In this document: in pieces, positions 8,201 through 58,682 of the stretch
How the letters are laid out: each line of letters starts with the position of its first letter
Position numbering within the stretch: position 1 is the first letter of the stretch
Source of the DNA: a virus
Reading direction: 5' to 3' (one strand)
Virus record (IMG/VR): IMGVR_UViG_3300025626_000006
Span: 32,001 to 96,000 of that record
DNA length: 64,000 nt
Notes under the pieces: generated by a model
Databases searched by the model: none
Told to the model about the DNA's origin: nothing
Seen by the model: the letters and a program-made list of their open reading frames with translations, nothing else
Made by a program: the position numbers and the translations under genes

Positions 8201-11200
8201 CTATAAATATGAAACTTTTGAGAACCCCTTCACTTTACTGATATCTATTATCTGGTCGACCATATCTCGGGTCTTATCGATGTGTGAAATCGTGATAATA
8301 AAATCAAATTGTGTCTTAAGGTAATCAAATAATAAATATAGTGAATTAAAGTTATCCGTATCTAATGAACCAAATCCCTCGTCAATGGCGATAAAATTAG
8401 GTCTTGGTAGGTTAGATACATTAATTAATGCCGTTCTAATTGCAATTGATGAAATGAACTTCTCCATACCACTTGTTAATTCAAGAGGCCAAAACTCATC
8501 AGTTCCATATGCTATATATGAATTAATGTTTTTTCCATCAGTATTTAATAATACTTGAAAATCAACTATTGGTGATAGGATGTTGTTTATTTCTATTTCT
8601 AATTTTGGTAGTACTTCAGATATTAATTGGTATGGTATCCCATCTCTTCGTACACATTTTATGTAATATTCATATCCATTATATTTGAGTTCCATACCCT
8701 TTAGCTTTTCAATTGACTCGTTTACTTGTTTAATTGAATTTTCAGCTAATTTAATTTCAGAGTTCACGTCTACAATCTCATTGTTCAATGTGGATAGTTT
8801 CTCACGAATCATCTCTCGTGTGTCTTTAAAAGATTTTATCTTTTCGTTTAACAACTTATTATGCTCAACTGCTTGTTCTTGCTTTTTAGCTTGTTCAAGT
8901 TTTTGTTTTAAATCTTTTATATCTGAATCGTATTCTCTCACTTGAGACATACATTTATCATATACAAACGTAGCACTTACCCAATCCTTCTCTAATAACG
9001 TTAGCTCAGAAGATAGTTCTTCATATTCTAATAATTCCTTTTTAACATTAAATGTACGTCTTTCATCTAATAAGGATGTTTTGTCATTTAGCAATTTAGA
9101 GTATTGTTTTTGAGATGCTTCAATGTCTCTTTGTAACTCTATTCCTTTTTTAGCAAAAGGAGTGTTTTGATTCTTTACACAATGTTCACATTCATCATCG
9201 AATGATAATTGACCAATTCCTTCTAAATGAGATTTGTTGTGAGATATATCCAATTCAAGTGTTTGAAGCTTGGATTGAACTTCGTTAAACTTAGTATCTA
9301 ATTGTAAAAACTTTTTATTTGTTTCTTTTAAAGCTTTTATATCTAACTCTTTAAGTTTTGTTTCTACATCTGATTTAGATATCTCTATACTTTTTAATTG
9401 AGATAAATTAAAGGTACACTCTTTGTCTTGTGTTGTACGAAGGATATTTATATCTTTTAATGAAGATTCCAATTCATCAATATCACCAACATCTTCAGTT
9501 GCTTTTAAGTCCCTCATTTGAAATTCAATCTTAGTATTAGTGTTTTCTAATTTAAGATTTAAATCGTCTTTTTTAATATTTAAAGAATCAAGTGAACCTG
9601 TTATACTTGTTAGTGTTTGCTCTGCGTCTATTAACTTTGTAGGAAAATCTTGTTTCTTGTAATCCTTTAGTAACGTATTTAGTTCTCTAAATTCTTCACT
9701 AGCTATTTGATATAAGTCTTCAAACACATCCATATCTAAAAACTGAGCTAATAATTCTTTTCGTTCCTTTTGGGTTTTTTCTATAAATCCGCTACTATTA
9801 GATTGAGTTGACATTGCTGTTAAAACAAAATCTTCATATGTTCCAATATATTCACGAATGTTAGAATTAGTCTCTCTTCTTTGCTCTCCATTAAGAGACT
9901 CCTTTTGCCCATCTACCATACGATAGAATTCTACATCAACTTTTACAGTTCCCCTCTTAGGACTCTTCTTAGCGTGTCTCTCGATAAAGTATTGAATATT
10001 ATTTAATTCAAATTGGAATTTACAATCAAAACCCATCTTAGAATAATTTAAAACATCTTCAGCTCTGATTGTTCTTGAACATTTATCAAACATACAAAAT
10101 GATAGAGCATCCCAAAGTGTAGACTTACCACTAGCGTTTGGCGCAAATATTCCATAAGCCCCTTTCATATTAGTGAAGTCAATTACATTATTGTTTCCAT
10201 ATGAAAACATATTTGAAAATTCAAAACGTCTTGGAATCCAAGTTGAATTACTAATAACGTTATGTTTACCAAGTTTGTCGTTTAGGTTATTATTAATCTG
10301 AGTTACAACACTTAATTGTTCTTGGGTTAAATGGTCGGTCTCTTCTAAGTATTCACTAATAAGTTTATTTTGAAAACCAGTATCTCTTACGTTTTGTAAA
10401 ATAATTGATTGATGTTCAATATCACGTTTACGAGTAAGTACTTTTTGAACTGTAAGCTCTTGTACTTTACGACCTTTTTTAATATCTACTATTAGCTTAT
10501 TAAGCTGAGAAGCTTTTGTGTCTTTTACTCGTACTCGTATTCTTGGTTTATTAGGTATGGGGTTATCTGATACTATTTTACCATTCTCGATATCAATAGT
10601 AACGTAACCATAATCGTTGTGTATTTGAACAAACTCACTTGTTAAGGTTTCCATATCCCATACTAATATACCATGATTTGGATATTTAGCTTCACCATGA
10701 TTTTGAACAACGAGAGACCCAGGATACTTTATATGCTCGTTACCCATGACTGGGTTGTTTGGTTTATGAATATCACCTAACAATACTAAATCAAAGTTTG
10801 TAAAGTCACCTACTTTAACATTTTGGTTTTGAATAACAAACCCATGCTCTGTTTCTATATTATCGACAGGCCCATGAAACATTCCAATACGACCCTTGTT
10901 CTTTTTATATCCAGTAGCTTTAGGGAATCCAACTGTGGTGTCCCATATTGACTTATGTATAAAAGTATAACCACCAATACCAAAACCACCCGTATCTTTT
11001 ATATAGTGTAGGTTTTTATGTGATAATGCGTTGATGATTGGGCTAAGTGCGTCTAATCTTGATGTATTATTTAAGTTAGCGTCATGGTTACCAGGAATTA
11101 CAATTGTTGGTAATAAGTCAGCTAATCGAGTAAAGAACTCTTGTGTTAAATCAACTACTTCTGGAGACATATCCGTTTTTGCGTGAACAATATCACCTGC

Positions 11201-12761: not shown

Positions 12762-14483
12762 CTATTCAAAATCTAATCGAACATCTACTGTGACATCAAC
12801 ATCACGTCTTTTCTTTAAGGGCGAACCCAGTTTACCTATAGCGACTAATTCACCACCATCATTGTATAGTCCTACGGATGTAATATATGGTCTAAAATCA
12901 GAACCTGTTACAAAGTTCTTCAAAGTATAATCATCTTCAACACCACTTAGTCTTAAGGTGTTATTTTGTGATACATTAAACTCATTTTTTCCAATTTCAC
13001 ATAGTATCGATTGTTGTTCAATTTTTTTTGTAGATTTGTATTTAAATTCAAATGTTCTATCGTGGTCAGCGTAATTCCAATTACCATCACCTAAAAAACA
13101 ATTTTGATATTTAGGCCTTGGGTCTGTTATTACTATTAACCCCTTTTTATGAAACACATAACCTACATTATTTGTTTGATATGCCGAACCACTTGTTATG
13201 TGGTTATTATATAATGACATTCTGTTACCACTCGTTAGTTCTTGGGTGACAATTCTAACTTCATCTAAAGAACCACTTGTTCCATTTTGCGTTTTGGATT
13301 GGTCAGTACACATTATATTTAAGTCATACTCATTATCTATTATATCGGTAAGTCTAGTTTCACTACTACCCATTATTTCATTATTTAGATAAAAATTAAG
13401 TTGACCACTTGTCTTTTCAGTTGCGGCTGTATGGCTTACCATTACATTATGCCATGATTCATTATTAACTTTAGCCGATGAAGTTGCTATAATACTTGGT
13501 AATGCTTTACCACTACTTCTACTGTATGTAAACGCTAGCTTTCCGTTATCAGAACCCGCGGCTTGATTATATACTTCTATTGAGAATGGAAACGCATCAG
13601 GTCTTCTTTTGAAATCCAATTGGTCAGCTCTGAATGGTCTATGAGCAGCGTAGTTGTTTACTCGTTGATTCTTTTTATTAATAATAGTATTAGTTATTTT
13701 TTCTGTAAATGATTGACTTTGTGGTAGTTTAATCCACATAGAAACTCCCCACGACCTGGATGTTGTAAATGGAGAAAGGTGAGCTGCTGGTATTGTTAAT
13801 TCAGAATTAGCAGTCATTGTTACACCATAACCACTTGCCGATGTCGGTGTTGGTGATTGTCCTTGTGTATCAATTCCCTTACAAATTTTTAAATTAGAAA
13901 CTTCTATTGGAGTATTGGAAATGGATTCATCTTTGCTTGCTTTATATAATTTACCAAATACACCACCATTAAATCCTAAGTAAACTCTATTGTTACTTTC
14001 ATTGATAAAATGTGTAGTATCAATTTCGGTATCATAAATGTAACCAAAGTCATCGTCTTGATATGATGAGCTTAAAAATAAATTACCACCATCAAAAGAA
14101 TAATCTGTAATTTGTACAGATTTGGGTTTAATACCAAGTCCTATTTTTTGTTGAGGTATCGATATGATTGATGCCGTAGGATATAACGTCTTACCATCTT
14201 TCTTAAAACACGTTGAATTTATTGAAGACCATACTACTTGTTGCGGAATTTTATTTAACTCTTCACTTATAGCACCTGAGCCAGTTGCTAGTGTTGAATC
14301 GAATGTTACACCTTGGTGTTTAGAAGTAGATACTTCCGTATGTGTTCCATTGGGTGACGTTCCTCGTAGTATAGATATTTCAAATGATGACGAATAATTA
14401 GCAGTCGTCACTTCATATGTTTTATGAGCGATAAAGGGATACGTTTGTATACCTTGATTGAATATCCTTTTTAATATAGCCAT
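12762..14483 (-). CDS. Virion baseplate/tail protein with LamG-like (concanavalin) domain and tail-collar-like C terminus
   Basis: VSMWIK...WHNVMV...GSLDEVRI LamG pattern; C-terminal YITSVGLYND.GELVAIGKL shared with the next gene. Confidence 0.65.
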   Translation of the reverse strand: MAILKRIFNQGIQTYPFIAHKTYEVTTANYSSSFEISILRGTSPNGTHTEVSTSKHQGVTFDSTLATGSGAISEELNKIPQQVVWSSINSTCFKKDGKTLYPTASIISIPQQKIGLGIKPKSVQITDYSFDGGNLFLSSSYQDDDFGYIYDTEIDTTHFINESNNRVYLGFNGGVFGKLYKASKDESISNTPIEVSNLKICKGIDTQGQSPTPTSASGYGVTMTANSELTIPAAHLSPFTTSRSWGVSMWIKLPQSQSFTEKITNTIINKKNQRVNNYAAHRPFRADQLDFKRRPDAFPFSIEVYNQAAGSDNGKLAFTYSRSSGKALPSIIATSSAKVNNESWHNVMVSHTAATEKTSGQLNFYLNNEIMGSSETRLTDIIDNEYDLNIMCTDQSKTQNGTSGSLDEVRIVTQELTSGNRMSLYNNHITSGSAYQTNNVGYVFHKKGLIVITDPRPKYQNCFLGDGNWNYADHDRTFEFKYKSTKKIEQQSILCEIGKNEFNVSQNNTLRLSGVEDDYTLKNFVTGSDFRPYITSVGLYNDGGELVAIGKLGSPLKKRRDVDVTVDVRLDFE

Positions 14484-43622: not shown

Positions 43623-43699
<77 letters not shown>

Positions 43700-43704
43700 A
43701 TAAA

Positions 43705-43795
43705 AAAGAGAGGTTTCGGGTCTTTCGGGGTTACTACGATATAGAGGTTAACCCTTACCTTTTTCTATACCATTGTAGCTTCACTACCTCTCTTT
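43705..43795 (-). ncRNA. Candidate structured ncRNA between tRNA-Leu and tRNA-Arg
   Basis: 10-bp closing stem AAAGAGAGGT/ACCTCTCTTT; inner stems; loop GGGTTA complementary to downstream TAACCC. Confidence 0.5.
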
Positions 43796-43796
43796 G

Positions 43797-43882
43797 TACC
43801 GAAGGTGGGGCTCGAACCCACACGAACATTACTGCTCAAGGGATTTTAAGTCCCTCGTGTCTACCTATTCCACCACTTCGGC
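43797..43882 (-). tRNA. tRNA-Leu(UAA)
   Basis: GCCGAAG acceptor; loop CT-TAA-AA; variable arm. Confidence 0.93.

Positions 43883-57077: not shown

Positions 57078-57078
<1 letters not shown>
56434..57078 (-). CDS. J-domain co-chaperone
   Basis: KALYKKLATKTHPDKTGGDESVFQSVKDAY. Confidence 0.8.

Positions 57079-58682
<1,604 letters not shown>

Follow-up and report, generated by a model that had tools for sequence, protein, structure and literature searches.

Phage tRNA clusters can harbor small stable RNAs that are not tRNAs. In phage T4 these are species 1 (rnaC) and species 2 (rnaD), which lie in the tRNA cluster, on the tRNA strand, and abut tRNAs. In phage T5, RNAI, RNAIII, RNAIV, RNA1, RNA2, RNA2H and RNAX have the same placement; the GenBank annotation of the T4 and T5 RNAs is still 'stable RNA', function unknown. 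GOLLD, ROOL and manA RNA, which are several-fold larger than the module described here, resemble it in being phage-borne, located near tRNA genes and orphan in function. The theta ribozymes, which are minimal HDV-like ribozymes, also adjoin phage tRNA genes, often tRNA-Leu or tRNA-Met (PMC10879173). The module examined here occupies a site of the same kind as the T4 and T5 RNAs, and comparison with other phages reveals that it is a portable cassette, not peculiar to one tRNA operon.

The window (the whole stretch of viral DNA that was analyzed, 64,000 nt) is part of an IMG/VR record of 111.9 kb with an estimated completeness of 63%. Its genes include baseplate, GroEL and clamp-loader-like genes; the GroEL-type chaperonin is full-length and is encoded at 57078-58679 on the minus strand (phrog_5725, E 6e-163). 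Six minus-strand tRNAs are called in the window by ARAGORN and Rfam, with scores of 57-73 bits. Megablast of this tRNA region gives tRNA-Leu as the sole match (Bacteroides phages) and is uninformative on the host. A protein-based locus search for relatives of the neighboring 251-aa protein found none.

The preliminary description had placed an unassigned structured RNA almost exactly in the space between tRNA-Leu and tRNA-Arg, and the tRNA coordinates from ARAGORN and Rfam bear this out. Sequence inspection locates the module on the minus strand within the 96-nt gap between tRNA-Leu(UAA) and tRNA-Arg(UCU). The upstream neighbor, tRNA-Leu(UAA) (43796..43882, minus strand; ARAGORN taa, RF00005 57.6 bits), abuts the module, and tRNA-Arg(UCU) (43623..43699, minus strand; ARAGORN tct and Rfam) begins 5 nt past P1. 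The whole module, from P1 to P1′, covers 43705..43795 of the minus strand, of which 43707-43793 are matched by the covariance model R1.

All elements of the module lie on the minus strand and are given here from 5′ to 3′. The 5′ strand of P1 (43786..43795) and its 3′ strand (43705..43714) form a 10-bp closing helix. The junction J1/2, AGUGAAG (43779..43785), ends in three bases that, together with the following CU, are near-invariant (alignments A1, A3 and A6). The 5′ strand of P2, CUAC (43775..43778), pairs with GUAG (43734-43737), the third pair of this helix covarying among GC, CG, AU and UA, and the 5′ strand of P3, GGUAUAG (43765..43771), pairs with CUAUAUC (43738-43744). A 3-bp GGU/ACC helix (43757-43759 with 43746-43748), visible in the sequence, closes the loop AAGGGUUA (43749..43756), which is near-invariant in the alignments. 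According to pair counts, the 5′ strand of the pseudoknot, GGGUUA, falls within this loop, and its 3′ strand, UAACCC (43728..43733), is contiguous with P2 and directly 3′ of it. The remaining part of J2/1, CGAAAGACCCGAA (43715..43727), is single-stranded and constitutes the most conserved stretch of the family. The pairings proposed in the preliminary description (the 10-bp closing stem, CUAC/GUAG, GGUAUAG/CUAUAUC and GGU/ACC) are all present in the sequence.

The single-sequence fold (-24.4 kcal/mol, z -2.41; 5 of 200 shuffles equally good) is only moderately better than chance in energy; the comparative evidence is decisive. Aligned copies indicate an architecture that runs from P1 through J1/2, P2 and a variable P3 to a loop with GGGUUA, then back along P3 and P2. 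It continues with a near-invariant strand of about 19 nt, which opens with UAACCC, the predicted pseudoknot partner of the loop, and ends with the return strand of P1. Across the family the module measures about 87-125 nt, and in some copies P3 bears an extra hairpin. Every subtype conserves the final three bases of J1/2 with the adjoining CU, the GGGUU loop and the ~19-nt 3′ strand; P1, P3 and the internal loop joining P2 and P3 vary freely.

Pairs were counted for P1, P2, P3, P3b and the pseudoknot in alignment A2, which consists of 15 cultured-phage copies. Paired cells amount to 90.9% in A2 vs. 69% in shuffles, and the A2 covariation score is 0.54, compared with 0.16 in shuffles (0/500 reach it) and 0.04-0.10 with slid partners. 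Over three alignments the score is 0.54, 0.47 and 0.51 (shuffles 0.14-0.16, 0/500 as high; slid controls 0.04-0.13), the alignments scoring 0.47 and 0.51 being model-fitted and hence biased toward the structure of R1. Compensatory changes occur in A2 at 8 of the 9 pairs of P1, 5 of the 6 of P3 and both pairs of P3b, and in the model-fitted alignments at 7-8 of the 8 pairs of P1 and, in one of them, at all 6 of P3. P1, P3 and P3b covary strongly in the alignments, and compensatory support is limited for the pseudoknot. The stems of the preliminary description are conserved in homologs, with compensatory changes, over 48-79 distinct sequences. U-G and G-U pairs are frequent, P1 included; such pairs would be A-C mismatches on the opposite strand, so selection acts on RNA of the module strand.

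The pseudoknot, likewise put forward in the preliminary description, holds up in part. It fits all variants and shows two isolated compensatory changes: in XaC1 a G-C pair is replaced by A-U, and in a Rhizobium phage an A-U pair by U-A. Several copies have a wobble or an extra A-U pair in it. Against it, the lineage of G2469-type copies breaks one pseudoknot pair. The evidence is thin because the two strands are nearly invariant.

Covariance model R1 was built from the 15 A2 sequences, among which the subtype of the window is not represented. It matches the window at 43707-43793 on the minus strand over the full model length (48.4 bits, E 5.4e-10), and since R1 detects the element although its subtype was left out, the element counts as a member of the family. 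R1 also recovers every other subtype, plus 100 of the 100 metagenome loci searched. A second R1 match in the window (13096-13177, minus strand; 22 bits, E 0.003-0.01) is probably due to chance, because it lies inside a 573-aa ORF (12762-14483) and has no 3′ motif; it contains a loop-like AAAAAGGGGUUAAUAGUA stretch. Sensitive blastn finds the 3′ strand of the element in unannotated tRNA-cluster gaps of unrelated cultured phages, with up to 25 nt identical; an identical 25-mer is shared by the window element and RaK2-like Klebsiella phages. In Klebsiella phage RaK2, Erwinia phage Hena1 and Pseudomonas phage Milchi, the whole gap displays the same architecture with other helix sequences.

An exact 20-mer of the 3′ strand occurs in 43 IMG/VR contigs and in 1 small MAG contig when 185,579 prokaryote species are represented by one genome each, and a looser two-block pattern occurs in at least 119 metagenome contigs. 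Matches of a loose 5′ pattern scan are mostly chance, in coding sequence, and 3 of 10 matches to the class-I pattern were judged chance. Blastn with the Hena1 copy identifies at least 55 GenBank phage records, which span T4-like Mosigvirus, T5-like Demerecviridae, Vequintavirinae, Stephanstirmvirinae, RaK2-like and other jumbo phages, and Rhizobium phages; nearly all of these copies sit under no annotated feature. The core is near-identical in phages of Escherichia, Klebsiella, Erwinia, Proteus, Pseudomonas, Rhizobium and Xanthomonas, and in aquatic phages. Searches for the module in 5,426 complete E. coli genomes and in 72,556 plasmids gave no match. The family has no counterpart in Rfam 15, and a literature text search for the motif found no paper describing it. 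A 2023 catalog lists 10,006 viral candidate structured RNAs (PMC10690425), and the family may be among its unnamed candidates.

Within tRNA arrays, the module behaves as an interchangeable element. Of the closely related Mosigviruses, AV117 has an empty slot between tRNA-Met and tRNA-Arg, in ST2 a tRNA-Asn occupies it and in mogra the module does, with clean junctions; the flanks of such presence/absence pairs are 97% identical. In IMG/VR, 34 of the 46 loci with standard copies are in tRNA arrays and share the strand of the tRNAs. Standard copies from metagenomes number 75; tRNAs flank 22 of them on both sides and 16 on one side, and in 32 of the 75 a tRNA starts no more than 25 nt downstream. 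The identity of the flanking tRNAs differs among copies, and the spacing to their ends is 0-6 nt upstream and 4-12 nt downstream. The module is always co-oriented with transcription. Neither 33 loci nor 21 permuted loci have a neighboring protein in common. One copy (L029) is located 13 nt upstream of tmRNA, and two ~2-kb contigs from freshwater RNA libraries share 43706-43793 alone with the window, with 4 differences and unrelated flanks. A metagenome contig (L185) carries two subtypes, a long three-way-junction type at 885-1000 and a short type at 242-328, both on the minus strand; these two modules share a strand and are ~560 nt apart. A structured RNA inside a tRNA operon, as the preliminary description had it, is real, but the operon is only one among at least six contexts of a portable module.

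Further features accompany some copies. Module-bearing phage contigs include tmRNA or permuted-tmRNA genes (L029:10599-10962, minus strand, 45.6 bits; L208:9813-10216, 56.4 bits; L028:2337-2489, 62.3 bits). At L016:~9540-9680, about 15 nt of the tRNA-Arg leader and first bases (UUUUACAUG.ACCCA) are repeated on both sides of the module, a repeat that suggests insertion or recombination with duplication. In the T5-like phages KpGranit (L159:460-600) and My1 (L160:461-660), additional sequence without annotation, apparently structured and with another GGGUUAGCCC hairpin, separates the module from the next tRNA downstream. A weak manA RNA match (L006:1998-2310, 28.8 bits, below the gathering score) shares a tRNA array with a module copy. 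In Klebsiella phage KP13-26, a stretch containing UUAAGUGCAGCUAGAAAUC is found between tRNA-Leu and the module (L156:~345-385). This stretch presumably resembles the ToxI antitoxin RNA repeat of ToxIN systems; an Rfam search of it gave no match at E<=0.01.

Outside tRNA arrays, the module is grafted onto other RNAs. The rV5-type DNA polymerase gene has a group I intron whose P6 site differs between phages: O157 typing phage 5 has a short hairpin there, SSE121 and its relatives have an HNH endonuclease ORF, and Klebsiella phage VLCpiM5b has the module, as an exact helix-for-helix replacement. The VLCpiM5b intron (L157:263-567 = ON602729 28514-28818; RF00028, 69.8 bits) interrupts the DNA polymerase gene, for which the record gives two separate 'DNA polymerase' CDSs. 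In RNase P-like RNAs of three lineages, viral or metagenomic, the module takes the specificity-domain position (L033:376-650, L010:3142-3418 and L200:930-1212 on the minus strand; 54, 24 and 33 bits). From best to poorest, the E values of these matches are 1.8e-12, 9e-7 and 3e-3, and all three score below the Rfam gathering scores. These RNAs have P4-type conserved strands and comprise only ~180 nt once the module is excluded. A tRNA-Leu body (RF00005, 38 bits) in L184 and L219 has a permuted core where its anticodon arm would be. Circularly permuted copies make up 17 of 92 distinct metagenome contexts, none of the 17 abutting a tRNA. P1 is either capped by a loop, as in the Rhizobium phages, or deleted, with the junction strands joined directly. 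The 21 permuted loci examined lie between ORFs, mostly with same-strand ORFs on either side. Overall, at least five kinds of RNA context bear the module, in two strand orders.

The preliminary description had matched the element to neither tRNA, tmRNA, SRP RNA nor a small ribozyme, and this stands: a search against Rfam 15 (4227 models) returns no minus-strand match for it even at E<=10. The sole Rfam match at the element is CRISPR-DR30, on the opposite strand and at chance level (17 bits, E 4.9). A 6S-like RNA was discarded, as the same search at E<=10 contains no 6S match. For an HDV or theta ribozyme, hand threading fails and no HDV-type model matches; the nested double pseudoknot of HDV is excluded because the 5′ end of the module pairs with its 3′ end, leaving a single loop-to-junction pseudoknot. 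A riboswitch class was rejected, there being neither a shared neighbor protein family (33 loci, 21 permuted loci) nor an expression platform, and so was a MITE-like DNA inverted repeat, given that the P1 sequences are unconserved but covarying and that U-G and G-U pairs fail on the other strand. Homology to T4 rnaC and rnaD was dismissed (R1 has no match at E<=1 in the T4 locus L048, and the motifs are absent by eye), as was homology to the T5 stable RNAs, R1 giving only two coding-DNA matches at E~0.6 in the T5 tRNA region L176. The 9-mer GAAAGACCC, which we take to equal positions 2057-2065 of E. coli 23S rRNA, could imply mimicry of this rRNA; the match is read as chance because it is so short and because T4/T5-type copies have GAAACACCC instead.

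Strong selection acts on the module, which folds as a self-contained unit and has no protein partner next to it. As no neighbor protein is held in common, the core is near-identical and the distribution is restricted to phages, our committed guess from these sequence comparisons is that the module acts alone or with a universal partner. The reading we favor, also a committed guess, with a probability of about 0.35, is that of a trans-acting binding RNA carried on a stable-RNA chassis, with a target conserved across hosts. It is preferred because the varied carriers look like natural counterparts of engineered tRNA scaffolds. In the phage of the window, the module would be co-transcribed with the tRNAs, and an RNA of ~90-95 nt, its ends protected by P1, would be set free by RNase P cleavage at the 5′ end of tRNA-Arg and by trimming of the 3′ end of tRNA-Leu. 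tRNA arrays, tRNA shells, the intron helix and the RNase P-like RNAs would then all be vehicles for abundant, nuclease-resistant expression of the cargo, whose invariant pseudoknot core may bind in trans and make the module a decoy, sponge or inhibitor. Candidates for the target, which would be conserved across Gram-negative hosts, are a protein of the host, a small molecule, and pre-tRNA or the tRNA elbow; the last of these is suggested by the position inside RNase P-like RNAs. Public marine RNA-library contigs contain nearly all sampled words of the window record, and in a marine RNA run the depth over the module equals that over the flanks, in contig data that possibly derive from DNA. Against a trans-acting RNA, the distribution is typical of small self-cleaving ribozymes as well, support for the pseudoknot is thin, and against a cargo that merely rides, the module could have a role of its own inside the RNase P-like RNA. 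A new catalytic or ligand-binding RNA class, i.e., a self-cleaving ribozyme or a sponge or decoy for a host factor or an immune signal, is entertained tentatively; such a class would likewise ride tRNA arrays, tRNA shells, the intron helix and the phage mini RNase P RNAs.

The main rival, which we consider doubtful, is a new class of small self-cleaving or self-processing ribozyme that would contribute to dicing polycistronic precursors of tRNA or mRNA, with cutting likeliest in J1/2 or J2/1. The combination of variable helices, some 35 near-invariant nucleotides in the junctions around them and a loop-to-junction pseudoknot fits such an RNA, as does the scattered, phage-restricted distribution without gene association. 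The natural circular permutations with P1 capped or deleted point the same way, circular permutation being found in hammerhead and twister ribozymes, and the strand topology of the permuted order may resemble that of pistol. There is also a precedent for ribozymes beside phage tRNAs in theta (PMC10879173). Even so, the ribozyme models of Rfam give no match at E<=10, and the conserved core exceeds that of most small nucleolytic ribozymes. Cutting would break the carriers, though helices could hold the pieces together. The distance to the tRNA ends varies, and therefore the module cannot define tRNA termini precisely. In another reading, the module is an aptamer sensor, in which a ligand-stabilized closing helix would allosterically control processing of the next tRNA by RNase P, intron splicing or the RNase P-like RNA: a tRNA start within 25 nt downstream in 32 of the 75 standard metagenome copies would suit it. 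So would the exact replacement of intron P6 helix for helix, and the conserved junction strands flank the helix that joins the module to its host RNA much as in riboswitch aptamers. Control of a group I intron has a natural precedent in the c-di-GMP-II riboswitch of Clostridioides difficile. We nevertheless consider a sensor improbable, since it has neither a conserved gene association nor an expression platform, many copies lie alone between ORFs, and permuted copies retain the core with P1 deleted, so that P1 is no conserved switch.

The mobility of the module across sites could also reflect a selfish element of stable-RNA genes that folds by itself, does little harm at permissive sites and brings no benefit to the phage. 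Clean presence or absence among phages with 97% identical flanks agrees with this, as do the intron site shared with the homing-endonuclease ORF of relatives, the freshwater copy with 4 differences and unrelated flanks, and the two subtypes within one array (L185). A selfish origin is nonetheless improbable to a similar degree as a sensor: the P1 sequences differ freely, neither conserved termini nor plausible transposition machinery is apparent, and purifying selection on the single-stranded core is extreme in phages whose hosts belong to different bacterial classes. Co-orientation with transcription without exception and dedicated phage-built carriers such as the tRNA shell also speak against it. 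The least probable reading, to which we give hardly any weight, is a degenerate tRNA, a pseudogene or a meaningless spacer hairpin. The element does fill a tRNA slot and has an acceptor-like closing helix, but positions 43700-43795 are called as tRNA neither by ARAGORN nor by the Rfam model (RF00005), D, anticodon and T arms are absent, and the core with its covarying stems is kept in at least 55 GenBank phage records and at least 160 contigs. By sequence comparison, such a reading is already refuted.

A trans-acting binding RNA remains the favored reading, and the family has wider implications. Its near-invariant core reaches phages of at least seven bacterial genera as well as marine and freshwater viromes, and the occurrence of one fold on at least five RNA contexts and in two strand orders argues for an autonomous functional unit. 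The module is present in cultured E. coli, Klebsiella, Proteus and Erwinia phages, and because sister phages with and without it at the same site exist (mogra vs. AV117), its activity and phenotype are directly testable. The family also accounts for gaps that many GenBank phage records leave without annotation, and it brings to light what appear to be mini RNase P RNAs encoded by phages.

Compared with known systems, the module and the theta ribozymes are alike in being small, pseudoknotted and directly beside phage tRNAs. The permuted-order module and the pistol ribozyme (RF02679) presumably share a 6-bp pseudoknot between a hairpin loop and the junction strand between two helices. Unlike pistol, to which it has no sequence or covariance-model similarity, the module has other junction lengths and a much larger core. 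The L184-type chimera has the same design as engineered tRNA scaffolds, tmRNA and YrlA, in that cargo replaces the anticodon arm, a design that lets host enzymes process and stabilize the cargo RNA. In contrast to the engineered scaffolds, the chimera is natural and phage-encoded, and the same cargo has other carriers too. GOLLD, ROOL and manA RNA are represented in Rfam, and none of them matches the window element. With respect to the T4 and T5 RNAs, the module family is non-homologous, far more widely spread and portable between RNA hosts. A non-tRNA stable RNA in a phage tRNA cluster is therefore of a known kind; what is new is the family itself, its breadth, its grafting onto different chassis and its permuted forms.
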